A stretch of 63,616 nt of DNA, the filler included. It is 8 parts of 8 records of this genome, joined end to end, with 100 filler letters (N's around TTAATTAATTAA, not from the genome) between each part and the next. Parts side by side here need not be neighbours in the genome. Positions count along the whole stretch, not along the records: positions 1 to 20,747 come from SRR7504441_1670; 7 more parts are not named here. One strand, given 5' to 3'. A program made the position numbers and the translations under genes. Within the stretch, counting starts at the first letter, position 1. Each line of letters opens with the position of its first letter. The notes beneath the pieces were generated by a model. That model saw only the letters and a program-made list of their open reading frames with translations, had not been told where the DNA came from and ran no database searches. Of the stretch, positions 3,691 through 59,473 are shown one piece after another.

Positions 3691-6600
3691 GCTGTGTGCA
3701 CATCGAAGTTGGTCACATGATGTGCAATCGGCTTCTCTGCCCGAGAGCATGATCCTTCCTGACACAAAAACATTTGAGACTGTTGGTGTAGCGTGCCTGC
3801 TCCCTGGAAAGACATCCACATCATTCGACTTGTGGGAAACCTTGATGCTGGGATGCGTACACATCACTAGCAACCCACCGCTCAGGTGGCAGGAAGCCTG
3901 TTCTTTGGCTGGAGCCCCAGAAGCCGTGTACACTGGGGCGTTTGTCGAAATGAACAGACATACAGACTTGCTCAACGAGGCTGATGATCACCTCAAGCTT
4001 ATGGTTGGAGTGAGTCGCGATGCAATATTAGATACCAGAAGCCTCGTGCAACCGTATACGTGTGGGCTTTTTACTGCGGCTGCAGCACAGTCTTTTGTGA
4101 TCCCACTATCACAATTCCACATTTCTCGCGTCGTTGCGCAGAGTTTGAAGATCGGAGGACCTCATCACAATGCAGATGCTGCGTGCTCATCAGGTTATCT
4201 TGCGTTTGTGTATGCACTTGAGGCCCTAGGATCAGGAAGCTGTGGAGCTGCTGTGGTGACTTATGCTAATTTGCCTCTGTATTGACGATAGGTCTGTGCA
4301 GGTGTGCGGCGTATCACTACTCCGAGACCCGGCTATGCCCATATCGCTTTTGGACATGGGTATTCTGTCACCATCTGGCTCCATGTGTCCGTGGGATGCT
4401 AGCGCTGATGGAATGGTGTGGGGCGAGGGCTGCTGCTCCGCAGTAGTGCAGCACGCTACCTCCAAACAGGAGTACGTGACCATCACCGGATGGGGAGTGA
4501 CACAGACCAGTTCACAGCTTCCGCTCGGGTTCTCGGATCCTGCTGCAATGGAGTCTTCAATCTTACGTGCCATGTCATGCGCTATACTCCAGCCTCAGAC
4601 AGTTGAGCTGATACATATGCACGCAATGGGAAGCCCGGCATCGGATATCCCTGAGCTGATGGCTGTTACAAATGGATTGTGTGGAGTCGAAAGAATAGCG
4701 CTAGCAATCGTGAATCATAAGGCTAACTTCGGGCACGCTGTGACTGCTGCTGGGCTAATGGCAGTTCTCACCACAATCGTGGCAGTTCAGCAACGACAGG
4801 CTCCTCCGCTTTACAGCATCACATGTCCCATCAAAGAGGTCACGGCAGCGTGCCTTTCATTACCCTTGGATTGTAAGCTCAACCTCCGGGCGCAAGGTAT
4901 CGTCCACGCTGGCATACATGGGACAAGCGTGAGTGGTGATAACATCTTCATGCTTGCTTGCCAATGCCAGGAAAGTCGCGGATTACAATTGAATCAGTTC
5001 GTCAATGCTGCTTCTTTTTCATCATTGGTTAATCCGGCGTTACAAGATCAGCACCGAGAAAATTGCGATTCTAGCTCTCTTTCGCCGCTCATTGGTTTGT
5101 GCTGCAGAAACTTGTCTGAACTCGCATCGCAAATCGCCGACCGGACGGTTTTTGCCGATGATCAGCTGCTTGGGGATGCACTGAATTCGGTGCAACTTGT
5201 GCGTTTTACCCAGCGGGCACAGAAAGAGTTTGGAATGGAAATTCTGCCAGCTGTGGTGATCGAGCACAAAACTATTCGAGCTGCTCTTGCATTCATGGCC
5301 TCTATGGATGAAGCTGTTCAGGAAGGCGATAGCCAATCCAGCTCCAACGGACAGATGGCAATGGGCCATCCACAAGACAATATTAAAGAGCGCTGTCTTG
5401 AAGCTCTGGGCTCAGATCCTCCACAACCGCCCCTGCGCTTAGACCCCGTTGAAGAAGCTACCAAATCTCGAGAGCAGTTTCAAAATGCACCAACACCCAT
5501 GCTTCAATTCAGTATTTTGTTCTTTGGTTCAGACTTGGACGACACGGCTGAAGCTTACCAACTTGTGTTTGACATGTCACTGCTGGCAGACAGGAATGGG
5601 TTTCAAGCTGTGTGGTTTCCAGAAAGGCACTTTGAAGTGTTTGGAGGATCATTTCCGAATCCAAACCCTCTTGCTGCGTCTGTTGCAAAGCTCACTAGCA
5701 AGATTCGCCTGAGAGCTGGTAGCGTCAACATCCCACAGCATTTTTCGCCGCTAAGGGTGGCTGAGGACTGGGCAATGGTTGATAACTTGTCAGGTGGGCG
5801 TGTCGATATCAGTTTTGGTGCAGGTTGGAATGCAGTCGACTTTGCACTGCAGCCCCAGAATTTCTTCGTAAATAAGTTGGTGCTTTGGGAATCGATTCGA
5901 GCTGTCCGCCATCTATGGCAAGGTGGAAAGCTACAGGTCCGCGACGGCCTTCGTAAGGAGATCAGCATTGGAACACGCCCTCGTCCGATCCAGCCTGCTC
6001 TCGAGGCGTGGGTCAGTGCATCGGTCAACCCACAGACCTTTTGGGATGCTGGTGCTGTTGGATGCAACATATTGTGCAGCGTATTTGGTCAGACATGGTC
6101 AGATCTCGGCCAGAAAACCGAGTTCCACAGGCTTTCTCTCACACATCATGGGTTTGACCCAACGCAGCGGACTGCTACATGCCTTGTGCATACCTTCATG
6201 CTTGAATCCGACCAAGCCGCGCAGGCTGTGGCCAGAAAGCCTCTGGTGGATTATCTACTCAAGGGAATACATCTAATCAGATTGCAAGACCCAGCTATTG
6301 CTGAACTGCCAGATACAGAGCTCGCATCAGTCGCTGCATCCCGCTTTCTGCAAACAGCAAGCTTGATTGGTAGCCTGGAGAGCTGCAAAGCGATGGCATC
6401 GAGGATACGCTCAGTAGCAGGAATTGACGAAATTGCGTGCTTGGTCGACTTTGTGACAAACCGAAGGAAGGTGATTGACAGTTTTGGGTATATTACTCGG
6501 CTTTCTACATCTTTTAGCCAGAGATTGCCTCACCAACGAAAGATTCCTGCGATACGTGCTGATGCACTCACAACACCGTTTCCTCTGGCACATCGGAGCG

Positions 6601-9600
6601 CTAGAAGACATGCATGCTTCCTCAAGAGAGTCGAGTGTGTGCCTGGGACTGAATGTTTCGTTGTGACAATTCATTTTGATACCATGCCAAGCTTTATCCC
6701 TGGTCAACACGTCGTTTTGCTTCACGTCGACTCAGAAGACACGGTCTATGTGTTCGCATCACTCAGCGACGTGAATCTTTCCAATCAAACCATCGAGCTG
6801 GTGCTAAGAGCTGGGTTCTGGCCACCAATTCTCTCGCGTTTGCCTCACATGTCAGCAGGAACCCCGCTACAAGTTGATGGCGCTCATGGCACCATGATTC
6901 TGCCATCCCTAAAGGACTTGGATGGATTCAGGCGCATAACACTCATCGGGGCAGGTACTGGCATAGCTGGCTTGCGATGTATCCTCAAAAGTCTTCTCCT
7001 CAGCAAACCTTCACTCAAAGTCAATCTTGTTTATTCATGGAACTGTGCAAAATACCCTTCAATACTTTACCACGATGAGTTTCTGCTCATGGCACAACGA
7101 GGTCAGATCTCGTATACGCTCTGTGCAACTGGCGATAACAAAATTGTCAGTAGCCCGAACGTAAGGATCTTCCACCACCGTATGGACGCGGAGGTTTTGA
7201 GAAACGAAGTGTGCCGAGAGACGCTCGTTTTTGTGAGCGGGATGCCACTAATGGTCGGTCATGTGCTGATTCAGTTGAAACTCCTGGGAGTGCCGTCGTA
7301 CCACGTCAAGACAGAGTCGTATGGAGTTGAGTCTGCGAGAGCTTACCTTGAGGAAAAGCCTATTTCCTTCGTAGCTCACAGTACCACGTCTGGCGCCGAA
7401 CATCTCAGCATTCAGTGTGAAGTAGAAAGCCAGCCGTTCAGTACTGTCCCCCTGTCGTTTCCGGTATCCTTGCCAGACGAGGCTGCTGGGGTCGGTATTG
7501 TAGGTCTAGCCTGCCGCTTGGCAGCAGACGCGAATGCAGCTCCGAGCTTATGGAATGCACTCGGGTCGAATCTGTGTACGGTGACACGCTCTCCCCCTGC
7601 CAGATGGGTGGAGGCTTGCAAACAAGAAGGCATCTCTTCCTTGCCAGGTGCATTCATCGATGCATCAGAGCAGATTGACTGGCTCAAAGGCCCAGCAGTC
7701 GATGCCGAGCAGTTAGATTCTCACCTTCAAGTTCTGCTGAGCGTCATGGATGAAGCTCTGGTAGCTTCTGGCAAGCCTCGCGCCATGTGCCAGTACCAAT
7801 GTATTGGTGTTTTTACTGCGGTCGAATCTTGCCGACTCGTGGTTCCTACCCCAACCTGGCTGATTTCTGGCCTGGTTGGCCAGCTGTTGCAGCTGAATGG
7901 ACCACACAGAAATTCAGATGCGACATGTGCTTCTGGGTATCTGTCTGTTTGCTTGGCAGTGGAAAGCATCCGGTTTGGTCATTGTCAGTGTGCTGTTGCT
8001 GGTGGATCGGCTCTCAGTCTTCGAGCAGGGCCAATGTATTCGATGTTGGTCCAAGGAATATTTTCTAGAAGTGGCCGCATCGCGCCGTTAGACACGAGTG
8101 CAGATGGCACTGTTATCGCAGAAGGTTCGGTGGCCATCACACTGACCTCGAATACGTCCGACAGCCATGCATCTATCACTGGCTTCGGCACTTGTCGTAC
8201 CCTCTGCGCAGCGGTTACAGGAGTCACCAGCCCGATAGAGATGCAACGCGCTTGTGCGTCTTCTCTTGCAGCTGCCCGATATAAAGCAGGGGATATAAAC
8301 TTGGTCCATCTACATGCAACAGGTAATCCTCATGCGGATATTCCAGAAGTCACAGCCATGGCAGAGGTTCTGACCAATAGCGCCTGTTCAACCAACGATG
8401 CACTCATTCTTTTGGGTCACAAGGGAGTATTTGGGCACACTGAACCGAATAGTGGCATTCTAGGGATTGTTGCGACCGCTCTTAGTCTCAGTCACCGCCT
8501 TGTACCGAGTCACGTTCGTATAAGGAAGACTGTGACAGAGGTAGCCGCTCGTAAAGAATTGGACCTTCCTGTTACATATCCTCGAAAGCTGGAGGCCGTC
8601 AGACCACTGCGAGCTTCAGTCAATGCTAATTCAGGTAGTGGGGACAGTGTGCACATAGTGATGGAGGCGTGCGCGCGCAGTTGTGCCCAACATTCTCTGT
8701 CATGGGCTCACACAGCTCTGAAGGTGCCAGACCTCGTCTTCATTCCACATCATGTTGGCATTGCTATTCACAATATCGACAACACGTTGAGTTCTCTCAT
8801 TGGCCTAGGATTTCGACGAGTGAGTAGATTTATATCTGAAGCTGAGCACGTAGAGGTGCACAAACCCATCTTTTTGTGCTCTGTAATCTTACTGACCGGT
8901 TGCTCTGGTTTTAGGTTTGCTTCGTTGACATCGGCGGGCCGGTCTTGCTCGAGCTTGTTCAGGGCTTGGACAAGTACTCGCCGGTTCAAAAGCTGTTAGA
9001 AGACACTGGGCCCGCTCCATATCATATTTGCTATCAGGTTCAGGATCTGCAAAGGGCACTGGCTCATCTTGAGGGCTGTGGTCACACGGTCACAACCAGG
9101 CAGTCTGAATTTCATGCATTTGTACTCTCTCCAGATAAGCAACTAGTCGAATTAGTGAGCTTTGACATCTCAAAGTATTGGATTGGCTCTGATGGTAAGA
9201 TCAACTTACTAACAAGCCATGCAGCTGCTCCCATGCCTTGTGCCATGAAAGCTGAGTTGAACTTTGTTGGGTTTTGTGTCCGCTGCACTAAAACCGCGGT
9301 TGCTCTGTGCAAACAAAGCTTTGGATTCGACGTACTGGAATCCTCAGGCAATTCTTCACATTCTGTCATCCTGAATGCTGGCGGAGGGCTGGCAATCAAA
9401 GTTTTCGAGCCTAATAACGAGCTTGAATCAAGGGACCGCCGGTTTGAGAGACCTGGGGCATACCACTTATGCTTCTCCCGTGTACACGCTGATGACTGCG
9501 CGAAAGAGTTGACCCTTTTGAGTACCGCATATCAACACAGCGAGATTCGCCAAATGTCGGACGGACAATTGTTGTGCTGGTCACCTGATTCTCAGATTCG

Positions 9601-12600
9601 CCACCAGGCCCAGCTCTTGAAGAAATCACGTGGGGTTTCCAGCATGGCCAATCGCAACAGCGAGGAGTCACGCTCCCCTGTCATGCCATCTAATCACACG
9701 CCTGACCTCCTGCTGAGCATTATATCACGGCATGTGAATGATATAGCTCAGAAGTGCGTGGATGTTTCCTCGCCCCTCATGAAATCTGGACTAAGCTCGC
9801 GCGGGGCTCTTGTCCTCCAAAAAGCTATCACGGAAAGATTCCAGGGCATCCAGGTATCTCCAGTACTGATCTTTGACTACCCGACTGTCACAGAAATTGC
9901 CGCCCATATTCACGCCTTGCTTGAACCGATGGACATCAGGTGACTTGATGCATCGCCTATGATCGTGTGGAATTGACCTTGGTGTATGATGCAGGTGTGA
10001 CCATGACCAGCTAGCATCAGAATTACCGATGGGCGCAAAATCGGTCCAGAGTGTCGTTGCAGCAGAGTGCTCTGCTCCCGGTGGCTGTCGTACCTCTAAT
10101 AGTCTGTGGAGCTCACTCAACTCGGCGCATAATAGCGCTGAGCAAATTCCTCAGTGTCGCTTCGATTTGGGGGCATATGACGAGCTCAGTGTCAATGTAG
10201 GTCACTTTCTGAAAGATGTGGAATTGTTTGATCATATCTACTTTGACATGGGATCGCTGGAAGTAGAAGCTACAGATCCTCACCATCGGATATTCTTGGA
10301 GCTTGCTGCAGAGCTTTGCGCGGCCGGTCATGTGAAGCGTTCGCTTTCAGGTCTGGCCATGGGGGTTTTTGCAGGACTCTGTTACAATGATTGGATGAAA
10401 GTGGAACGTGGCAGCGAGACCTCGATCTTCTCAGCGCATGGTGGCGACATGAGCTCTGCCTCAAGTCGAGTTTCGTACTTGTTTGGGCTCAAAGGGCCAT
10501 CTATGACTATCAATACCGGCTGTTCGTCAGGACTTACAGCACTGGACACTGCACGTCACAACGTGAAGGCACTAGCATGTAGGTCGTCCTTGGTTCTTGC
10601 AGTAAACTTGCACCTTTCTGTTGATGGGTGGATTGCTCTCGGTGTCATTGGTGTGCTTGCTCCTGACGGCCAATCCAAGACATTTGATATCAAAGCAGAT
10701 GGGATGGGCTACTCAGAGGCGAGTGGGGGTGTGCTGATACAACCTGACTCATTCCACGCCCCTTGCTGTGTGGCTGGCTCAGCTGTGAATCAAGATGGCC
10801 GAAGTGCAAACTTCATGGCACCCAATGGATTGGCTCAACAAGCTGTCATTCAAGCTGCTCTGGAGGCCAGAAGCGTTGAGCATCATGTCGAAGTGCATGG
10901 CACAGGCACACAACTCGGTGATTCGGTCGAAATGGCATCGTTGTGTAGCGGACTGCTTCGTAACAGTAAAAGGCACATAGGGTTAGTGGTTGCCGGGGCT
11001 GTAAAATCCAACCTTGGGCACACAGAGGCGGCGTCTTCACTGGTAGGGCTCGTTAAGACCATTACCACCCTGCAGCGCGAATACGTGGCACCGAATCTAC
11101 ATCTGACACAAACCAATCCTAATTTGGACCAGCAGCTAGTTGAGAGTGTATCACCATCTGAATCAGCCCGGGTTGCCTTTGGTATGAACTGCATTGAGCG
11201 CGTTGGGGGCATCAGTGCCTTCAGCTTCAGTGGCACAAACACTCATGCCGTTGTTGTGTCTGGAGACAGGTTGGTCCAGTCAGAATTGGCAAAGCGCCGT
11301 CCCATGGTGCAGTTTTGCCACCAAGTCTTTTCATGGTGGTCTGCACCATTTACACAAGGGTCTCCATCCAAGACTGGTGTCTACAGGTTGGAAACTGTGG
11401 TGCTTGAACAAGTTGCAAGAATAGTAGGTACACGTGTCGGGCTAGATGAACCGCTTGCCGAAGCGGGATTTGTGTCTTTGCTGGCGGTCGAGTTACAACG
11501 ACAATTATCGTCTACTTTAGGCGTGCCACTTCCAGCAACAATTTTCTTTGATCATCCATCAATCTCAGAGCTTACTTTATACATCACGGAGGTCATAGGA
11601 TCCAACAAAGGACTTGATGCTCCAATTTCCAGCCAGACATCATTGCCCCAGATGGGAATTGTCTTTTCAGAGCAGAGCATCAGCGCACACGACTGGTCTT
11701 TACCTGCTGTGCTCTCTTATGAGCAAGAACAGTTTCTTACGCAGCAAGAAATGGCCCCAAGCTGCACTGCTTTCAATCTACTCTTTTGCTCAAAGGCCTA
11801 TCGTCATCTAGGCCTACATCAAGTAGAGGAAGCTGTGCGAAGCATCATCAGGCGTCATGGTATCCTGCGAACGTCCTATTCTTTCGAAGCAGGTGAGGCC
11901 AGACAGAGGATTGTTGATTGGGAGCCAGCCATTACAACCGTGCAGTCGCTCAAAGATGTTTTTCTTCATGCAAGCCGGCCGTTCGATCTTTTGTCGGGCC
12001 AGCCTCCAATTCGAGTTGTTCTTGTAAACGCTCGCGATGCACACTTTTTAGTGCTCATATCGCATCACATTGCTATCGATGGGATCTCTATTGCCATTCT
12101 GCAGGACGAGCTGAACCTTTCATTATCCACACTTTCCTGTGGAAAGGGGCTGGAGCAGATCGAAGATTTGCCGCCTTTACACTCGATGGCATTATACGCC
12201 ACGCAGCAGCGATCTCTGCGAGGCGACTATTGCGATTCTTCCTTGTCCTACTGGCGTGACAAATTTAAGGACAAACCTAGAAGTTTAGACTTCGGATGCA
12301 CACGCCCTAAGACCTTCACACATCTTGGAGCTAGTGTTCCAGTGGTTATTCCTGCGGGTTCCTGGACTGCAATCACAGCTGCTGGAGCCAAGGTAGCTGC
12401 ATCTCCCGCGGCCTGCTTGTTTGCATTATGGGCTGCTTTGTTGAACTGTTACACCAAACAGGACCAAATTGGGCTGCTTGTGCCGGTTGACCAGCGTGGA
12501 TTTCGTCGTTGCTTTACTGGAGTAGTTGGAAATATGGCAAACATGGTAGCCCTGTGGGTTGACGTTGGTTCTGTCGGATCAGTGATATCCTTGATGCGTC

Positions 12601-15600
12601 ACGCAGAGTGTGTATTGCTAGAGGCGCTCCAGCATGCCGACGTCCCTTGGCCGCTGGTAGTTGAATCGGTCTACGAGGCGCATGGCATCTTGCGAGATCC
12701 GAGCTCTGCTCCGTTGTGTCAGACCGTGGCACAGCTCTTGTCCTTCGAGCAACCTGCTTCGGAGTGTGAAGACGACATCTCATCGATTTACAACTCGATG
12801 TACTCTCACATTGGGGTGGAAACCGATCTACAGCTGCTGTTTCACGAAGATCCAGGGACAAAAGAGATAAACGCGCAGCTCGTATACTACGCTGGGCTGT
12901 TCACTCACAATTCTGCTATGCGAATGGCGTCACATATAGAATCCGTAGTGAGATTGCTGGCAAAAGATCCTGATCTGCAGATTGAAGACTTGCAGAAGAA
13001 AATCACAGGAAGTGTAAAAGGCGATGTTGTTGCATTAGAGTCACCAGGCTCCATATTCGCTCTTACGGGTTTACAGCTAGGATATGTGTATGGCAGAAAA
13101 GGCACAGTGGGTTCTCATTGTTACATGGAAATCGATGTCGACAGAATTGATGTCTCTCGTGTAGAGCTTGCCCTCAACAAGCTCATTTCTCGGCACGAGA
13201 TGCTCAGGGCTGTCGTCCGCACTGATGGGATGCAAGAGATAGTACCAGATGCTGAAGTTCCGTGGTACTCTATTTGTGTGAAACATGATTTCAAGAGTTC
13301 AACACAACGTGATGTGTACTTGAAGTGTTGTCGGCTCAATGCACACAAATCGCCGTATCCATATGACATTGAAACGTTTCCCGGTTGGTCTGTCCGGGCA
13401 ACAGAGATCGACAATGACTGCTTGCGGTTTCACATCGATACTGATCTCGTCACTACCGGAAATAGCCTCGAGCTGCTAGCCCTCGAATTAGCTCTGCTAT
13501 ACAATGATCCAGAGGCATTGCTTCCACCAATCAACAAAACATTCCGCGAGTGTTGTTCCGGCCACTACAAGCCTGAAGAGGTTCGTGCTTCTCAGACGTT
13601 TTGGGCGGATCGTCTGCACCAGATTCCTGGCCCCCCAGCGTTTCCTGCTTGCTGGGGAGCAGGATTCAACGCGGAGACTCCTGCGATGCAACGTTTCGAC
13701 GACGTACTGACAGAGAAGGAATGGACATCTCTCCAGCAGAAAGCGGGAAATTATGATGTATCGTCCACTGATTTAATCATAGGGCTTTTCTGCGAGGTCT
13801 TGCGAGTGCATGTGGAGGATCCAAACTTTACACTCACGGTTGTCACAAATCGCCGAGATGAGGAATCTGCAAATGTTGTGGGTGAGTTTCACGAAATTCT
13901 GTTGCTTGACGTCCATTCTGGATTTGAAGATACCCTCGAAGAGCGAATCTCTCTCCTGGCGGGACGTATGTCAACAAATAGTAAGAACAATAGAATCGGG
14001 GGCACAGAAGTGCTCCGACAACTGCGTCAGTGCCACAACAACTTCACACTGAACTTCCCCGTAGTCGTAACGCCAATGCTTGCGCAAGATATCAAGCAAG
14101 ATATCACGTTCCCAACGATCGAGGGTAGACCACGCGTGGTGTTTTCGAGCTCTGCAACAACCGGTGTTACTCTCGATTTCCAGTTTTTAGATCGTGATGG
14201 CACTCTAATATATGGTTGGGATATGGATTCAAGAGTCTTTGGCGAGAATGCAGGTCGGGTGATGTTCAATAGCTTTTCTCATTTGCTTCATCGGGTCAGC
14301 CTCGATGCTGGACTTGCAGCGTGCGATACTAGTGACTTGTATTGTCGCCACGCTGCCGTGTTAGACAGATGGAACGCCACAGCCGCACCTCAGTGCTTAG
14401 ATGTGTGTTCTCAGTTTGAAATCGCGGCAACTGCCTGCCCTCAGAGTATCGCTGTCCTGTTTGAGGGTCAATCACTGAGCTATGCAAATGCCGAACGGTG
14501 CACATCAGTCTTTGCAGCTGCGATCCGTCACTATTGCAGATCAAGTCAGTCCTGTATTGTTGGGATATGCGCAAAAAAGAGCATCGAAGAAGTAGCTGGG
14601 ATAATGGGTTGTATGCGAGCTGGATTTGCCTATGTCCCACTCGATCCTAAGTTGCCTAGCAAGCGAATGGACCATCTGCTGGTGTGCACGGAGTGTGTGG
14701 CTGTTGTGATACAGCAGCAGCTCTGGAACGAGCTTCGGCCCCACCTAGAAAAGCATGACATTTTGTGTCTGAATGCAGAAGCTGAATTGCTTGGTAGGCA
14801 CCAAGTGAGTTCCTGCGTACTGGCCTCAAGAACCGGAGCGTTGGCGTATGTGTTGTTCACCTCGGGTTCAACAGGGGTACCAAAAGGTGTGATGGTCGAG
14901 CATACCTCGTTGATGGCATTAGTATCCTCAGCACAGCAACATCTATCGTTGTCCACCATCGACAATGTTCTTTACAGCATAGCGTTCACGTTCGACCCAT
15001 CCATTGGGCTACTGTGCTTCACGCTATCGTCACAAGCTTGTCTCGTTGTCGCGAGGGACGGGGCTTTGACCAATCCTATGTACCTTCAGGAACGAATGAT
15101 GACTGCGCAGATCACATTCACACATGCTGTGCCCGCTCCAACTTCACTCTACCTGGACATCGTACAGGAGCCAGCTTTCCCACCCTCTCTGCTTTTCTTG
15201 TATATGAGTGGTGAGATCTTGACCCCTGAGCTAGCACTGAAAATACTGGAACACCACTCTGGATTGACACTCTGGAATCGCTACGGACCGGTCGAGTCGA
15301 CTGTCGATTCACACATGCATTTCTGTCATTTCGATCGAGCAAACGCGCCAGCCGTTGTGCCAATTGGATGTCTGTTGCCGCATTCAACTTGTTGTGTAGT
15401 TCATCCTCAATTTCATAGCATTCCAATGCCACTCTTTGCGCCTGGCGAGCTATACCTTGGGGGTCCAAAATTATCTTGTGGTTACATCGGCCAGCAAGAC
15501 CTCACATGTGCTACCTTCAAGTCTGAGACAAAGGAGCGGGTGTATCGTACTGGAGATCGCGCTATGTGGCTCGACTCGGGCAGTATACAGTACCTCGGGC

Positions 15601-18600
15601 GTGTCGACTTCCAGGTCAAGCTCAATGGTCAGCGAATTGAGCTTGGTGAAATAGAAGCCGTGGCTCAGCAGACAGAAGGAGTTTCTGACACCAGAGTCCT
15701 GTTGCATCAGAGCAAAACGAGCGTGGCCCAATTGGTCATCTATGTGGTGCCGGTGGGAGTACAGCCAAGCGAGGTATTGGAGACATGCTGCAGTGCACTT
15801 CCGACTTACATGGTACCGTCCCTCGTAGTCCCACTTGCACAGTGGCCACTCAATTCGTCAGGCAAGGTTGACAGAAAGGCCCTTCTTTGTCAGCTTGATG
15901 ATTTGCAGCTTCGAAGACACGCATGTCCTAATCTGCCCCAACATCTGAATCCCGGAGCCAGTCACCAGGAAGTGGTCACTCCAGAGTTTCTCCAGAGTCA
16001 TGAAGAGCATTTAATCTTAGTACTGCAGATTATTCAATCGCTGATCGGGCGATCCATCGACACGGACAAGGAGCTAATGACACAAGGTTTCAACTCTCTA
16101 GCAGGAATCCGTTTACGTCACATGCTCCAGACCAAACTCAAAATGGATCTGCCTCAGACAGTTGTCTTTGACCATCCGACAGCAAGAAGCTTAGCAGAGG
16201 CTGCACGGCCCAATGTAAAATGCCAAGATCAGACAAATCTGATGCCAAAGTCAGAGTCGCATAGCCCTCACAGCCACTTTCATCCAAACGGGATCGAACT
16301 GCTTCCTAGCAATCCAGTCACATGGACTGTTGCGCAGGTTGTCGAATGGTTAGAGTGCGAATTGCCCTTCGGCGAAGTGTACCGCGACCACTTTGCCGAG
16401 CTTCGGATCAATGGAGATGCGCTTTTAAACGATTTATGCGAGTCTGACCTTGAAGAGATGGGGATGGCAAGGGTGCAGCGGACGCAGTTCTTGCGGAAGT
16501 TGAAAGGCAGGCAAGAACATGAGCCAGCTGTTTTTACACCTGTCGTAGAGGACCAGGATACAGGTATGTCAGTGGACAAGCTTTTTGCGGGGCCAATTGG
16601 TGACCAGCTGGATCCTGTAGCAGTAGTGGCCGTTTCCTGTCACCTTCCCGGTAATATCCACTCGCCAGACGATCTTTGGCATGTGCTTAGTACAGGTGAA
16701 ACGCTCTTAACCGGAGCAGTTCCCACCGCACTGGCCAAAGTCGTACCACAAGGGTACTCTGGCGCATACTTAGAGAATGCTACGGAAAGGAATGGGACAG
16801 TTCCCCAAAGCATGCTGCGTACTGCAAGAACAGTAATGTCGGAAGCTGGCCTAGATGCGTTGGCGCAAAAGGGCAGTATAGCTATCTTTTATGCAAGCCA
16901 TCACATAGGCCAGGACCATATCAGAAACGCTCCTGCTATACTTCTGGGAGATGCGCTCAACTTGTCAGGCGGATCAAGAAGCCATTTCAATTGTGGGACA
17001 ACTGCCTCACATTTAGCATTGCATACTGCAAGCAAAGGCCTTTTAGATGGTGCGTGTACATCTGCTCTTGTAGCTGGATCCTCGATGTTTGAAACCTTGT
17101 GGTGGCAGCCGGTGGCAGATCTCGTGTCCCCGACTGGCCGTGTTCGTGCATATGATATCAAAGCCGATGGAATTGTTTTTGCTGAAGGGTGTGTCGCTGC
17201 GCTGCTGCAACGCAAAAGCACCGCAAAGAGTCGACCGCTGGCTCTCATTCTCGGTTCTGCTGTATCAGTAAATAATCCTGAGCTTCCACCTAACTTTCCT
17301 GATCAGGAAGCAGAGGAGCTTGCAATGAGTCAGGCTATTTGGGCAAGTAAGATCGTTGCTACAGATTTGGCTTTTGTAGAGTTGGTTGGGAATGGCAATC
17401 CCGTAGGAGAGTATACTGAATTGAAAGCGGCTACAGAACAGCTTTTGGGGACACGCAGCGTCAAGCGCCCACTGCTGATTGGTTGTTTCAATGGAAACTT
17501 GGGTCATGCTTCGTTCTCGGTTGGGTTGATTGCACTTTTGAAGGTAACTCTACAGTTTCAACACAAGTCTGTTGCCCCGGTGATCCATCACTCAGATCCG
17601 ATTGAGATCATTCAACAATGTAGCGGGAAATTACTTGTGCCAACATCCTTGCAGGGCATTTGGTCAGACCATGGGCAAATGTACGGATCCATTCACGGAC
17701 ACTCTGTCGGCGGTGCCCCTAATGTTCATTTGGTGGTGAGCGCTGAGGTTAGTAGTCCGGGACTCGATTACAGCGAGGTTGAACAGTGTGTAGAGGCTAT
17801 CGCGTGGGTGAACAAAGCTGTGGTGGTGCTCAAGGATGGGAGGGCAGTTGGTTACGCGCAAAGTTCGCAGTCAGACTCTGACAAAAAGTCATTTCGCTTG
17901 GAGCAGCATGGACTTAGAGACTACGGGAACGCCACACAGATCAAGCTTTGTAGAAGTGGACATGATGGTGTCCATCACTACAGACGCAAGTCGTATCGCA
18001 AATTCATTGGCGGGCTTGAATGGTCAGAAGTTGAGAAGTTAACCGAGTTTCTGTCAGAGTGTCGGTTTCCTGAGAAGTTGCAAGGTACGAGCCCTGGATG
18101 TATAACTATTGATGAGCTATCGAAATTCTTTCAATGCATCTCAGCACTGATTTCTCCATCTGAGGTTCTCCCAAAGTATCGATATCCATCGGCTGGTTCG
18201 AGCTACGGGGTTCAAGTGTACATGAGTAACTCAGGCTGCAGAGGTCTCTCCCGTGGAATCTATTACTACGATCCGATGGATCATAGCCTTGTGCTCGTAA
18301 GTAGCAAGCCACTGTCCGCCCAAAGTGCGCTGTTCCTTGTCGGGAAGGATAGTGCGATCCGGCCGCTATATGGAGATTGGGCATTGCGGTTTCAGCAGCT
18401 TGAAGCTGGCTATATGCTTGAGTTGCTTCAGCAAAGTTATATGCATATCTGTGGATCCTTGATGGCACATTTAGATCTTGACTGCGATCTTGCATTGTTA
18501 GCAACGGAGGCTGGTATGATGAGTTCCGCCGACCATCTCTTGGGCGCGTTCTCCTTTGACTTTGAATCTGTACCTCCCCCTTTGAGAGAAGACCTTGCTC

Positions 18601-20747
18601 TGGAAGTCGACATATTTGTCCGCGCCGAACCGTGGGGTCTGTTTGACCACGAGAAAAACTCAGTCAAGGTAGGCGATGTGCCATCAGAAGGCGCTCCTAT
18701 CGTCTTGTATTTGGCGCACAGCAGTTCCGACGCACGACTGGCCAACTTGCAGCTAGGACAGTTGGGGCAACGGATCTTTACTCGCAAGAATTCGCTTGGT
18801 TTGGGCTGGTGTCCTTGGGGAAAGATCATGGACCTTGAAGTGGCACCGAATGCGCTGGTGCATGGTCTAATTGGCGGCAAGGTCAGTTTGGAACAGACAG
18901 ACAGTCTATTTGCACCAGAGGATACACTGGAAGCAAAGATAATGACTGAGCTCAAGGATAAATTACCGAATCACGACCTTCCAATAATGTGGACCGTGGA
19001 ATCTTATCCACTTCCCTTGGATGCCAACAGCATGATTGATAGAAGATTGCTAGCATCGGAAGACTATATCTGGGATCTACCAAGAAGTGGGCCACCAGTA
19101 ACCAAGCAATACTCAGCAGATCATAGTGAAATCTGTTCAGCAATTATGGCCCAGGTGTCCAGTCTGATCACGAATCCAACTTCTAGAATAACACCCAGGA
19201 CAAAGCTCCTTGCTGGTGGGATGACTTCGATCCAGGCAGTGCAGTTGAGTAGTGCTCTGTCACGCAGCTCTGGACTTAAACTGCCACCCACCCTTGTCTT
19301 CAATTATCCATGTGTAGAGGATATTGCTGTGTTCGTTGGGCAGAAGTCTGGCCTGATTGACTCCAGTTCACCTCCGCCAGAGGTGAAGTCAGATTCTCTT
19401 CCGGGCGATCCACAGGGCATCGCTGTGATGGCTGCGGTGTACACGTTTTCTGGCCGAGATCATGATTTGTCCCACATACTGCTGGGAGGCATCGATCGCT
19501 GTCAACAAGTTCCAGCGACAAGGTTCGCTGTTCCCGACGAAGTCTATGCCAAGCATGGGTATTTTATCGAGAGCCCAGAAATGTTCGACAACGACCTTTT
19601 TGAAATCAGCCTCGGAGAAGCTACAGCGCTCGACCCACATCAACGACTAGGTTTGGCGTCAAGCTACAGTGCACTTCTCAAAACAGGCAGCTTTTCGAGA
19701 TTATCTCTCGTGGGCTCGTCTGTTGGTGTGTTTGTTGGGACGATGACTGGTACAGAATGGACCGGATGTGCCTCTGATTCTGTTTACAGTGCTACTTCAT
19801 CTGGAGCAGCTTTCCTGGCCGGCAGAATCTCATATGTCCTCGGTTTGCAAGGACCGTCATTTGTGGTCGAAACTCTGTGCTCTTCGTCACTAGTGGCTCT
19901 GGACGCCGGGAGACATAATTTGAACACGAATCGATGCTCGCATGCGCTGGTGACTAGTACCAACCTCCTCTTATCAGGACAAGTCTTCCACATTCTCTGC
20001 AAGATTCGCGCCATGTCTCCAGATAGCAAGTGTAAGACCTTTGACAAGTCAGCAGATGGGATGGCCCGTGGTGAAGCATCTGTGTCTATTGCTCTCTGTC
20101 CATATCATACAAAACAAACACGCATTGCTGGCACTGGTATAAATCAGGATGGAGCAAGCGCATCAATGACTGCACCGAACGGCATTGCACAGGGAACACT
20201 GATACGCTCATTGCATGTCCAGTGTCAAACTCTGGGTGTCACTGGTAGCTCCGAGACTCATGGGACAGGAACCCCACTCGGTGATCCCATTGAGGTTGGT
20301 GCTTTAAGTACTGTATTTAAGTTCAGCTGTGATGCGACGCCGATGGCGTTTGGCGCCCTCAAGTCACACATGGGGCACACAGAGGGAGCTGCTGGAATCA
20401 TGGGGATACTGAAGGTGCTGCTTAATATGAAGAAGGCACAGGCAATTCCGAACCTGCACTTCCGCGAGGCGAACCCTAAATTGCAATTGGAAGATCTTGC
20501 CCTGATGTTGCCATCAGGCTTGCTCGCAGTCAACTTTATCCCAACTTTGGTGTCAGGTATTAGTGCATTTGGGATGTCGGGCACTAATGCCCATGCTGTA
20601 ATGTCTTGTTCAAGGATGCGAAACGTCACCGATGCGATGGAGTCCACGCAATTTCCTACGATCCGCTACAAACTCATAGCTTTCTGTTGGTGGAACCCTT
20701 CGGCATCCGTCGTTGCCGCGTCTCCAGTACGGCGATTCATTCCTCAA
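1..20747 (+). CDS. Giant trans-AT hybrid PKS-NRPS megasynthase, 5'- and 3'-partial; exons 1-2476, 2586-4255, 4302-8855, 8915-9939, 9995-20747 (about 6,826 aa)
   Basis: ORFs 49-2535, 2561-4285, 4263-8999, 8945-9943 and 10029-20795 join in phase across GT-AG introns. The joins restore motifs: LLQRAG|QIGKVVV (ER end), GSCGAAV|VCGVSLL (KS) and EHVE|VCFVDIG (VOC). Many KS/KR/ER/ACP/C/A motifs are present and no AT (GHSxG) domain was recognised. Confidence 0.93.
2477..2585 (+). other. Spliceosomal intron 1 of megasynthase (109 nt, phase 1)
   Basis: GCAG|GTAGCC...TGTCCAG|GCCAA; removal gives RAGQIGKVVV, the ER terminal motif. Confidence 0.88.
3775..5300 (+). other. Divergent shortened KS followed by ACP-like domain
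   Basis: DAACSSGY (catalytic Cys), HMHAMGS in place of HGTGT, HKANFGH; ACP-like GDALNSVQL...VIEHKTI. Confidence 0.8.
4256..4301 (+). other. Spliceosomal intron 2 of megasynthase (46 nt, phase 0)
   Basis: GTG|GTGACT...GTGCAG|GTGTGC with branch-like CTAAT/TTGAC; removes the stop at 4283. Confidence 0.85.
5499..6510 (+). other. Luciferase-like monooxygenase (LLM) domain, MupA/Atu3671 natural-product type
   Basis: FSILFF, ADRNGFQAVWFPERHFEVFGGSFPNP, IRLRAGSV, RVAEDWAMVDNLSGGRVDISFGAGW, GIDEIACLVDF. Confidence 0.92.
6610..7325 (+). other. Ferredoxin-NADP-reductase-family (FAD/NAD-binding) oxidoreductase domain
   Basis: FIPGQHV, LQVDGAHG, LIGAGTGIAG, VNLVYS, VFVSGMPLMV, LGVPSYHVKTESY. Confidence 0.85.
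7488..8670 (+). other. Second divergent shortened KS domain
   Basis: GIVGLACRL, DATCASGY, HLHATGN, HKGVFGHTE. Confidence 0.82.
8740..9920 (+). other. Tandem VOC/glyoxalase (methylmalonyl-CoA epimerase-like) domains plus ACP
   Basis: First VOC: HHVGIAI, LLELVQ, PYHICYQV, LVELV. Second, degenerate copy: NFVGFCV...PGAYHLCF. ACP: PLMKSGLSS...IFDYPT. Confidence 0.82.
8856..8914 (+). other. Spliceosomal intron 3 of megasynthase (59 nt, phase 0)
   Basis: GAG|GTGCAC...ACTGAC...TTTTAG|GTTTGC; joins the two halves of the first VOC domain. Confidence 0.87.
9940..9994 (+). other. Spliceosomal intron 4 of megasynthase (55 nt, phase 2)
   Basis: CAG|GTGACT...TTGAC...ATGCAG|GTGT; runs without a stop into the frame of ORF 10029. 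Confidence 0.82.
10050..11600 (+). other. Canonical KS plus ACP (non-reducing module)
   Basis: NTGCSSG, EVHGTGT, KSNLGHTE; ACP AGFVSLL...FFDHPS. Confidence 0.9.
11705..16205 (+). other. NRPS module C-Cy-A-T
   Basis: C: HHIAIDG. Cy: LTGLQLGYVYGR, RHEMLR, FPVVVT, VTLDFQ...LIYGWD. A: FTSGSTGVPKG, YGPVE, YRTGD, NSSGKVDRKAL. T: GFNSL. Confidence 0.9.
16310..16510 (+). other. Sterile alpha motif (SAM) domain inside the megasynthase
   Basis: WTVAQVVEWL...YRDHFAELRINGDALL..LCESDLEEMGM..VQRTQFLRKL matches the SAM consensus (W..V..WL...Y...F....I.G..LL.L...DL..MG....R..L). Confidence 0.85.
16610..19340 (+). other. Non-elongating KS0, then an A-subdomain remnant with inserted SagB/EpoB-type oxidase (Ox), then T/ACP
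   Basis: KS with NCGTTAS (Cys position is Thr) and VGNGN (His lost); A8-like LDYSEVEQ..VNKAVVV; Ox RRKSYRKF, PKYRYPSAGSSYGVQVY, GIYYYDP, LEAGYM; A10-like LPLDANSMIDRRLL; carrier GMTSI...VFNYP. Confidence 0.82.
19415..20610 (+). other. Canonical KS of the next (truncated) module
   Basis: ETLCSSSL, ETHGTGTPLGDPIE, KSHMGHTE, SAFGMSGTNAH. Confidence 0.92.
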
Positions 20748-20847
20748 NNNNNNNNNNNNNNNNNNNNNNNNNNNNNNNNNNNNNNNNNNNNTTAATTAAT
20801 TAANNNNNNNNNNNNNNNNNNNNNNNNNNNNNNNNNNNNNNNNNNNN
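20748..20847. other. Artificial contig spacer
   Basis: 44 N + TTAATTAATTAA (stops in all six frames) + 44 N. Confidence 0.98.
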
Positions 20848-30838: not shown

Positions 30839-30938
30839 NNNNNNNNNNNNNNNNNNNNNNNNNNNNNNNNNNNNNNNNNNNNTTAATTAATTAANNNNNN
30901 NNNNNNNNNNNNNNNNNNNNNNNNNNNNNNNNNNNNNN
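30839..30938. other. Artificial contig spacer
   Basis: N44-TTAATTAATTAA-N44. Confidence 0.98.
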
Positions 30939-36404: not shown

Positions 36405-36504
36405 NNNNNNNNNNNNNNNNNNNNNNNNNNNNNNNNNNNNNNNNNNNNTTAATTAATTAANNNNNNNNNNNNNNNNNNNNNNNNNNNNNNNNNNNNNNNN
36501 NNNN
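36405..36504. other. Artificial contig spacer
   Basis: N44-TTAATTAATTAA-N44. Confidence 0.98.
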
Positions 36505-41153: not shown

Positions 41154-41253
41154 NNNNNNNNNNNNNNNNNNNNNNNNNNNNNNNNNNNNNNNNNNNNTTA
41201 ATTAATTAANNNNNNNNNNNNNNNNNNNNNNNNNNNNNNNNNNNNNNNNNNNN
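41154..41253. other. Artificial contig spacer
   Basis: N44-TTAATTAATTAA-N44. Confidence 0.98.
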
Positions 41254-49956: not shown

Positions 49957-50056
49957 NNNNNNNNNNNNNNNNNNNNNNNNNNNNNNNNNNNNNNNNNNNN
50001 TTAATTAATTAANNNNNNNNNNNNNNNNNNNNNNNNNNNNNNNNNNNNNNNNNNNN
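49957..50056. other. Artificial contig spacer
   Basis: N44-TTAATTAATTAA-N44. Confidence 0.98.
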
Positions 50057-54751: not shown

Positions 54752-54851
54752 NNNNNNNNNNNNNNNNNNNNNNNNNNNNNNNNNNNNNNNNNNNNTTAAT
54801 TAATTAANNNNNNNNNNNNNNNNNNNNNNNNNNNNNNNNNNNNNNNNNNNN
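54752..54851. other. Artificial contig spacer
   Basis: N44-TTAATTAATTAA-N44. Confidence 0.98.
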
Positions 54852-59373: not shown

Positions 59374-59473
59374 NNNNNNNNNNNNNNNNNNNNNNNNNNN
59401 NNNNNNNNNNNNNNNNNTTAATTAATTAANNNNNNNNNNNNNNNNNNNNNNNNNNNNNNNNNNNNNNNNNNNN
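59374..59473. other. Artificial contig spacer
   Basis: N44-TTAATTAATTAA-N44. Confidence 0.98.

Follow-up and report, generated by a model that had tools for sequence, protein, structure and literature searches.

Oxidase (Ox) domains of the type that we take EpoB and MtaD to represent are embedded in an adenylation (A) domain, between its motifs A8 and A9, and are followed by a carrier (T) domain and then by a ketosynthase (KS). We compared such proteins through their own sequences (P0003, P0009 and P0020 among them), and they share oxidase family, insertion point and motifs with the module described here, which occupies residues 2195-3104 of P0001, in a single uninterrupted frame that mixes polyketide synthase (PKS) and nonribosomal peptide synthetase (NRPS) domains. 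Its DNA lies on the first contig (SRR7504441_1670, positions 1-20747) of a stretch of 63,616 nt, hereafter the window, in which eight contigs are joined end to end. Unlike EpoB/MtaD-type proteins, the module has lost the catalytic residues of A8 and A10, and a KS-like domain stands in place of the A core.

Among proteins of solved structure, the best sequence relative of this oxidase is BmdC (PDB 7ly4-7ly7), which serves bacillamide synthetase as a free-standing enzyme. According to its structural study, BmdC docks beside the A-subdomain loop at which embedded Ox domains are inserted, and acts on a thiazoline bound to the peptidyl carrier protein (PMC8795117). BmdC forms a dimer of its own and has an RRE-like domain, whereas the oxidase of P0001 is embedded and has a second lobe nearer to that of the tandem nitroreductase 3eo7. 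In four further relatives with the order A-T-Ox-KS (P0126, P0132, P0096 and P0127) the oxidase is independent of its own module's adenylation and a KS comes after, as in P0001, and a BlmIII-type module is said to combine a non-functional A domain with an Ox placed after the carrier. Some details of BlmIII are given in a published account (PMC8795117). In the A-T-Ox-KS relatives and the BlmIII type alike, Ox follows the carrier and the A core has been retained, unlike in P0001.

The other systems that invite comparison are the tailoring modules of trans-acyltransferase (trans-AT) PKSs, in which a non-elongating KS (KS0), a tailoring domain and a carrier act on a unit made upstream; the logic of the present module is the same, and the alpha-hydroxylation bimodule of mupirocin biosynthesis is reportedly of this kind. 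In the lobatamide pathway the non-elongating KS0-Ox module of LbmA tailors an NRPS-derived glycine unit supplied by the upstream module (PMC7586987), and KS0 bimodules of the haptophyte PKZILLAs host the tailoring of a unit made upstream (bioRxiv 10.1101/2024.01.29.577497). The oxidising domains of trans-AT tailoring modules are flavin monooxygenases of other families, and their KS0 is taken to transfer the chain through its Cys, in contrast to the KS-like domain of P0001, which has none in that position. The module rearranges familiar elements in a rare way, combining an embedded oxidase of EpoB type with a non-elongating module of trans-AT type.

The oxidase, its host subdomain and the KS-like domain

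The oxidase looks intact and is predicted to bind flavin mononucleotide (FMN). An exhaustive HMMER search of 1.84 billion representatives returned 1147 matches at E<=1e-3, the best 150 of which were used for a profile; conservation was scored on the 51 rows covering more than 300 positions, a column being called conserved at 70% or more. By this measure P0001 keeps 54 of 67 conserved columns overall and 44 of 45 within the oxidase, the sole exception being a Leu replaced by Phe2701, and the positions kept include RKSYR-F, LPKY-YPSAGS-Y, G-YY-P, AIxPxYG, LE-G and G-C-x-x-G. BmdC contacts the phosphate and isoalloxazine of FMN through an R-R-S-x-R cluster (Arg145, Arg146, Ser147 and Arg149) and through the backbone of residues 182-186, and Tyr260 is its proposed base (PMC8795117). 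The YPSAG of P0001 aligns with BmdC 183-187 in the HMMER alignment and, judging from spacing, RKSYR and the ExGY that contains Y2795 may be equivalent to the FMN-binding and base residues of BmdC.

A phmmer search of the PDB with the oxidase retrieved BmdC (5e-6) and CyaGox (8e-3). An AlphaFold2 (AF2) model of residues 2560-3012, built from a 45-row alignment (mean predicted local distance difference test, pLDDT, 82.5; predicted template modelling score 0.83), was matched by Foldseek to 3eo7, BmdC, ThcOx and McbC (E 1.8e-10 to 1.2e-4). With VIA-align the oxidase gave Z 24.0 to 3eo7 (287 residues, model 56-394), 18.5 to ThcOx, 17.1 to BmdC (model 117-289) and 14.3 to McbC. Since the two-lobed 3eo7 fits better than BmdC, the model suggests a pseudodimeric oxidase, an arrangement also proposed for IndC (PMC8795117).

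The flanks of the oxidase belong together, as the C-terminal subdomain (Asub) of an A domain. Aligned by MAFFT to 10 canonical A(Ox)-T proteins, P0001 joins at 'LDYSEVEQCVEAIAWVNKAVVVLKD..GRAVGYAQS', directly after A8 'GxRVELGEIE', and stays aligned through the whole oxidase, A9 and A10 into the carrier. Motif A7 ('YxTGD'), 'GRxDxQVK' and the first half of A8 have no counterpart; the final KS strand 'GAPNVHLVV', which ends at V2570, stands there without any linker. In the AF2 model the two flanks are matched jointly by C-terminal subdomains of the ANL superfamily (VIA-align Z 8.2-9.5, 82-92 residues, root-mean-square deviation 2.3-3.1 A), in alignments that span model residues 13-19 to 449-453; the matches include 5n9w 428-527, DhbE 433-531, GrsA-PheA (1amu) 433-527 and TycB 868-961, as well as 1t5d, 1md9 and 9bfd_B, and model residue 14 falls on GrsA 433. 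Because both flanks are matched jointly, they would form one A subdomain that starts after the hinge and holds the oxidase as an insertion, and the model supports fusion of the KS exactly at the hinge between the A core and Asub.

As a catalytic unit this subdomain is degraded. P0001 keeps one of the nine conserved columns of A8 and nine of the 13 of A9/A10, where Tyr is changed to His, Met to Asp, Gly to Ser and Lys to Met; the last is Met3002, in a column that is Lys in 50 of the 51 rows and Glu in P0144 ('NGEVDR'). With the Lys/Arg of A8 and the Lys of A10 both gone, the subdomain would no longer take part in adenylation, and Pfam gave no AMP-binding match, hence no A core, in residues 2195-3104.

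The KS-like domain has fared no better. In an alignment with three other KSs of the contig its catalytic Cys column holds Thr2324 (NCGTTAS; 16998-17000) and the column of the first His (HGTGT) holds Val2453 (VELVGNGNP; 17385-17387); the second His is present as H2493, the Lys before it is replaced by Asn2488, and the N-terminal half of the domain has deletions. A Cys, C2322, lies two residues before Thr2324; an AF2 model of the domain made from a 4-row alignment reached a pLDDT of 32.7, too low to place it. A normal KS0 keeps its Cys for chain translocation; with Thr2324 in its place, transfer of a chain from the preceding carrier (T2) to the carrier of the module (T3) would not be possible in the normal KS0 manner.

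Much of this had been seen in a first-pass annotation of the window, and the KS without catalytic Cys and first His, the SagB/EpoB-type FMN oxidase, the A10-like NSMIDR without its Lys, the missing A core and the carrier that follows have all held up, at the positions given there, in the alignments, the Pfam search and the nitroreductase-type fold of the model. The derivation of the flanks from an A subdomain, proposed there too, agrees both with the alignment to 10 A(Ox)-T proteins and with the ANL fold of the modelled flanks. What it called A8-like sequence is better described as the post-A8 flank, which aligns, the A8 motif itself being nearly erased. The eukaryotic look of the gene and the recurrence of the module elsewhere had escaped that annotation.

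Relatives and independent DNA

At least one further organism retains the arrangement, which did not turn up in those prokaryotic collections that were searched. When the best 150 of the 1147 relatives were annotated with the window's own domains as phmmer queries, 155 Ox occurrences were found, directly preceded by an A core in 114 cases, by nothing in 39, by a carrier in one (of the A-T-Ox-KS type) and by a KS in one, P0006, which shares this feature with P0001. The 40 matches with no A core before their first Ox are, besides P0006, all fragments that on inspection by eye have no KS upstream of Ox, and those that reach far enough upstream begin, again by eye, inside A-core or A8 motifs.

P0006 is a fragment of 395 aa (38% identity) that runs from 'FNANLGH' of a KS through an A8 remnant into the oxidase. 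P0144, also a fragment (37% identity), continues from the end of the oxidase through A9/A10, likewise without its Lys, and a carrier with its Ser into a KS, which lies downstream only. The end of P0006 and the start of P0144 are about 60 residues apart in a variable part of the oxidase, a gap of the kind expected if an intron splits the ortholog. A near-length search at E<=1e-25 returned P0006 only, and a homologue search with residues 2195-3104 was dominated by multi-KS actinomycete PKSs. Pattern scans of JGI metagenome contigs yielded 33 canonical A(Ox) loci, none of which reaches the KS part (the earliest start is at query residue 93), and a scan of one genome per prokaryotic species yielded canonical A(Ox) only (80 of 89 loci kept, with the earliest starts at residues 61-83); the three early-starting prokaryotic loci that were checked (residues 62, 61 and 75) are each preceded by a normal AMP-binding core. 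Each contig scan relies on a pair of short peptide patterns and so does not prove absence. In the part of the literature that was searched, fusion of a KS or KS0 to an Ox embedded in an A subdomain is not described.

Parts of the stretch are contained in seven DNA runs from aquatic or marine metagenomes, four of which (X1-X4) were aligned to the contig. Runs X1-X3 gave short contigs, 55 of 67 of them at 95-100% identity and 47 at 99% or more, and the matches of X4 were for the most part weak and partial. One contig of 403 nt from an independent run (X1 record 8) spans the KS/A8 junction, covering 17535-17940. Among the variable sites listed, 25 fall in the frame (24 more in the 20-kb stretch are unlisted), 14 of them synonymous and 11 nonsynonymous; within 17760-19055 the listed sites comprise seven synonymous and three that are not. 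A single indel was seen, an in-frame loss of 3 nt at 17750 that occurs in two independent metagenome runs; it takes one Ser out of 'VSSPG', in the erased A8 hairpin where KS and A meet.

Origin, proposed role and competing explanations

The segment from A9/A10 to T3 finds its best match in the ortholog and, after it, in bacterial A(Ox)-T tails (P0020, for example, at 28% over 143 aa, 2.6e-9); against the gene's own Asub-T2 it gave no BLAST match at E<=1e-3. The KS0 is 22% identical to the downstream KS and 21-23% to the other KSs of the contig. A tandem duplication of a unit [Asub(Ox)-T-KS] was considered and rejected, since A9/A10-T3 has no match to Asub-T2 and the KS0 is no closer to the downstream KS than to the others. 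Resemblance to A(Ox)-T tails, and not to Asub-T2, points to a canonical A(Ox)-T module as the source of the cassette, its core having been replaced or lost by deletion as far as the hinge. The first-pass annotation had recombination swap an A core for a KS0; a canonical A(Ox)-T origin remains from that proposal, with recombination as one route beside deletion and domain swap.

On balance we lean towards the view that the module is an oxidation cassette which does not elongate, goes back to a canonical A(Ox)-T module and makes an azole. A canonical A(Ox)-T unit would have lost its adenylating core and been fused at the hinge to a KS-like domain without its nucleophile and one His, and what remains of the A domain would be a scaffold that keeps the oxidase beside its carrier. 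In the preceding module the condensation (C) domain would form the amide and the cyclisation (Cy)-type domain close the ring, after which the oxidase would dehydrogenate the carrier-bound azoline to the azole and the active KS downstream would extend the chain. Without any part in catalysis, the dead KS would serve as a structural or oligomerising platform, possibly along with the sterile alpha motif (SAM) domain that precedes it.

That preceding module has its C and Cy-type domains in tandem ahead of a single A-T (11712-14363). A division of labour in which C condenses and Cy cyclises is plausible, given that the C domain has an intact HHxxxDG (HHIAIDG) and that the Cy-type domain, while it has lost the second Asp of its DxxxxD motif (HIDTDLVTTGNS), still has 'PVVVT' and 'GVTLD', the counterparts of 'PVVFTS' and 'QVWLD' in Cy domains, motifs that we take to hold the cyclodehydration residues. 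VibF is a precedent for such a division.

Several observations weigh against this account. The degenerate DxxxxD is one, and the pocket of the upstream A domain is another: read by motif anchors it is D-P-G-H-(Y)-S-R-V-D, with the anchor off by one at two of the positions, as against DLYNxxLIW in 91 of 91 A cores that lie between Cy and Ox in the best 150 matches. Given this difference the A domain is not of Cys type, a thiazoline is unlikely, and no azoline, of whatever kind, is established. About half of the pocket positions are presumably common to Ser codes; if an azoline is made, an oxazoline seems the better guess and would be at least as likely as a thiazoline. The earlier claim that the preceding C-Cy-A-T module makes the azoline stays plausible, weakened as it is by the motif and the pocket. 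The full pocket reads D-P-G-H-Y-S-R-V-D-K, two residues of which are unusual, the Gly at its floor and the Arg in the NxYGPxE position.

The oxidase and its flanks also score poorly in curated profiles. TIGR03605, suggested as a check in the first-pass annotation, matched at 3e-12 to 2.6e-13 (46.4-49.9 bits), below its curated cut-off of 78.4 and over the first part of the profile only (positions 2-75 of 173); its calibration on canonical relatives was uninformative, the lists being filled by A-domain families. The companion check with Pfam AMP-binding_C was negative on both flanks, the Pfam Nitroreductase score was only 0.12, and no equivalents of BmdC Asn236 and Gly294 were mapped in P0001. 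The relatives with the same arrangement are two fragments, neither of which spans the KS active site; the polymorphism depth is 2-6, so that single differences may be errors; and none of the runs containing the stretch is on record as RNA, the seven being DNA runs instead.

The last of these difficulties lies in the KS itself, since replacement of its Cys by Thr would leave T3 with no evident route by which to receive a chain, though the T3 Ser is kept both here and in P0144. Given the Thr, three possibilities are left: T3 may be idle, with the oxidase reaching back to T2; T3 may be charged in trans and serve Cy as its acceptor; or the transfer may be of an unfamiliar kind. The Ser in both sequences and the retained canonical Asub-T linkage would favour a role for T3. 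Comparison of the downstream KS with the KSs in the matches is uninformative on the substrate clade, as the six post-Ox KSs are no nearer to it than the remaining 10. A more specific version of the cassette, which we offer tentatively and consider rather doubtful, is that of an azole-forming NRPS chemistry of a marine protist, by a cassette that did not turn up in any collection searched, in which an A subdomain has become an autonomous Ox scaffold, welded at the hinge to a KS without nucleophile and preceded by a SAM oligomerisation domain, and in which translocation through the KS is bypassed, either by charging of the carrier in trans or by an oxidase that reaches back to the upstream carrier.

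Retention of the T3 Ser and of the Asub-T linkage would be accounted for by an elongation module that lacks an A domain, in which T3 receives Cys, Ser or Thr in trans and the module adds a residue instead of only tailoring one. Charging would then fall to the upstream A domain, serving two carriers, or to a free-standing one; Cy would use aminoacyl-T3 as its acceptor and C would use T2, so that the two domains of the tandem have separate jobs, Ox would act on its own downstream carrier just as in a canonical A(Ox)-T, and the KS Cys would not be required. One A domain loads several carriers in yersiniabactin synthetase. We nonetheless hold such an elongation module to be unlikely, because the degenerate DxxxxD argues against condensation by Cy, the 20.7-kb contig has no second A domain, and the A pocket is not of Cys type. 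The same two features of Cy and A would suit an oxidase active in some other dehydrogenation of a carrier-bound intermediate, such as the alpha,beta-desaturation of an aminoacyl or acyl thioester as carried out by the Ox of indigoidine synthetase, and Ox domains embedded between A8 and A9 that have non-azoline substrates exist, IndC being one (PMC8795117). Against this, the closest full-length relatives of the oxidase follow a Cy domain and a Cys-type A core (the 91 cores noted above), and the preceding module does have a Cy-type domain with 'PVVVT' and 'GVTLD'; we regard this reading as improbable.

The module could also be an evolutionary relic, skipped and without function in a decaying gene. 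Loss of three KS catalytic residues and of the A-domain lysines, the deletions in the N-terminal half of the KS and the lack of any RNA run on record with the stretch would all fit decay, and yet the frame is open over 3588 codons, the oxidase-conserved positions are kept save one, the arrangement is retained at 37-38% identity in another organism, synonymous differences are in excess and the one indel is in frame, so that a relic seems quite improbable. An assembly chimera of a PKS contig with an NRPS contig, to which the fragmented assembly lends some colour (the window is a string of short contigs), is next to negligible as an explanation: the KS/A8 junction is spanned by the contig of an independent run and recurs in P0006, and P0144 has the continuation from oxidase through A9/A10 and carrier to KS.

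The contig, its candidate introns and its probable affiliation

P0001 is an open frame of 3588 codons on the + strand (10029-20747), in which residue n begins at window base 10029+3(n-1); it continues into the linker and is therefore truncated at the contig end, and the gene as a whole is truncated at both ends of the contig. Over the whole frame Pfam gives the order KS, acyl carrier protein (ACP), C, C-like (Cy), A, T, SAM, KS, a stretch without Pfam assignment, T and KS, with a single AMP-binding core in the 3588 aa. Four frames 5' of P0001 encode KS-dehydratase (DH); ketoreductase (KR)-ACP-KS; KS-ACP-luciferase-like monooxygenase-KS; and glyoxalase-ACP. No acyltransferase family is among the Pfam matches of the five open frames of the 20.7-kb contig, on which the gene is truncated at both ends, nor was a trans-AT gene seen, and the PKS-NRPS appears to be trans-AT-like. 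The coordinates of all features are collected in Table 1.

Table 1. Features of the first contig and linkers of the window (positions along the window; residues are those of P0001)
Feature	Position	Strand	Evidence or remark
Candidate GT-AG intron, 46 nt	4256-4301		Removal restores a KS with the usual spacing from active-site helix to 'LSPxG'
Luciferase-like monooxygenase domain, MupA/Atu3671-type, FMN, inside PKS	5535-6248		PF00296 1.2e-27
Glyoxalase/VOC-type domain, intron-split, then ACP, within assembly line	8770-9943		
Candidate GT-AG intron, 59 nt	8856-8914		GTGCAC...ACTGAC...TTTTAG; removal mends the glyoxalase/VOC domain
Candidate GT-AG intron, 55 nt	9940-9994		Removal links ACP to next KS
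C domain	11712-12992	+	HHIAIDG, His679; PF00668, best stretch 562-988
Cy-type domain	13029-14363	+	Retrieves the Cy domains of 10 relatives and aligns with these rather than with C domains
A domain, complete (core and own C-terminal subdomain)	14415-15866	+	PF00501 1.2e-46, residues 1463-1819; AMP-binding_C weak, 1874-1946; A10 'SSGKVDRK'
Carrier T2	16020-16202	+	Ser2023; PF00550 7.2e-10
SAM domain, between T2 and dead KS	16317-16487	+	SAM_2 3.7e-7, 30.7 bits vs cut-off 20.5
KS-like domain	16611-17738	+	PF00109 3.7e-16, PF02801 5.7e-14, both above cut-offs
Orphan A subdomain, N-terminal part	17739-17891	+	Degenerate A8 hairpin, post-A8 helix and strands; alignment, fold
SagB/BmdC-type oxidase (Ox), predicted FMN, between A8 and A9	17892-18896	+	RKSYR 2653-2657; KY-YPSAG 2716-2723; ExGY with Y2795
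Orphan A subdomain, C-terminal part	18897-19064	+	A9 'LPNHDLP', A10 'NSMIDR'; alignment, fold
Carrier T3	19143-19328	+	Ser3067; PF00550 3.7e-9, 37.2 bits vs cut-off 20.8, residues 3039-3100
Downstream KS	19428-20627	+	Cys3284 and both His; Pfam, KS alignment; frame then reaches contig end
Linkers	20748-20847, 30839-30938, 36405-36504, 41154-41253, 49957-50056, 54752-54851, 59374-59473		44N + TTAATTAATTAA + 44N

Domains upstream of P0001 are divided between frames, with candidate short GT-AG introns between them, and the first contig is probably one giant gene. The candidates share a signature of GTG(A/C)AC at the 5' end, a yTGAC box 17-22 nt before a 3' (C/T)AG, and exon ends G/.../GT (the slash marking the splice site); those of 55 and 46 nt have common ends and an internal TTGAC, GGTGACTT...ATTGAC...TGCAG/GTGTG. 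A fourth intron is likely near 2477-2573. The module studied sits within one long exon; a hidden in-frame intron at 14332, where the exon of P0001 has its sole GTGACTT, was considered and rejected by eye, as this sequence encodes the usual 'WNAT' start of the A domain.

In the PDB, phmmer matched the SAM domain to those of Scm, CNK2, SARM1 and Shank; animal polymerising SAM domains are its nearest solved relatives, and it may be an oligomerisation element. The short GT-AG introns and the SAM domain indicate a eukaryotic-looking gene, and the source is apparently a marine protist. In a language-model look-up the cluster closest to the stretch was a eukaryotic KS-ACP one, with Haptophyta as its commonest members, at a score of 0.78 that is weak and serves as a lead only; a language-model search by domain gave no names but bacterial ones. 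The haptophyte trans-AT PKS genes known as PKZILLAs have GT-AG introns and many KS0 modules (bioRxiv 10.1101/2024.01.29.577497).

Elsewhere on the contig, about 300 aa 3' of the luciferase-like domain (about 6300-7300) have no Pfam match at E<=0.001 and look by eye like a flavin reductase of the ferredoxin-reductase type; the best relative, P0273 (45% identity), also has KS domains. Other KSs of the contig (7470-8700 and 4263-4800) have odd motifs (HATGNP, HAMGSP, KGVFGH, KANFGH) and keep their Cys where it is visible, and the synthase is very divergent from bacterial PKSs, at 21-35% identity to the KSs in the matches. The first contig has about 50% G+C and the remaining pieces of the window 53-66%, so the pieces may derive from more than one organism; those other contigs encode a UAA nucleotide-sugar-type transporter, an MFS_5 protein and HEAT-repeat proteins, possibly of another organism.

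For the engineering of megasynthases the module is a natural experiment, in which an Asub with its inserted oxidase is separable from the core at the hinge, can be grafted onto another kind of upstream domain, and has been kept by selection. It also raises a mechanistic puzzle, that of how a carrier behind a KS without Cys is served. Should the eukaryotic origin hold, the trans-AT-like assembly lines of protists, whose products are mostly unknown, would include the heterocycle chemistry of Cy and Ox domains.

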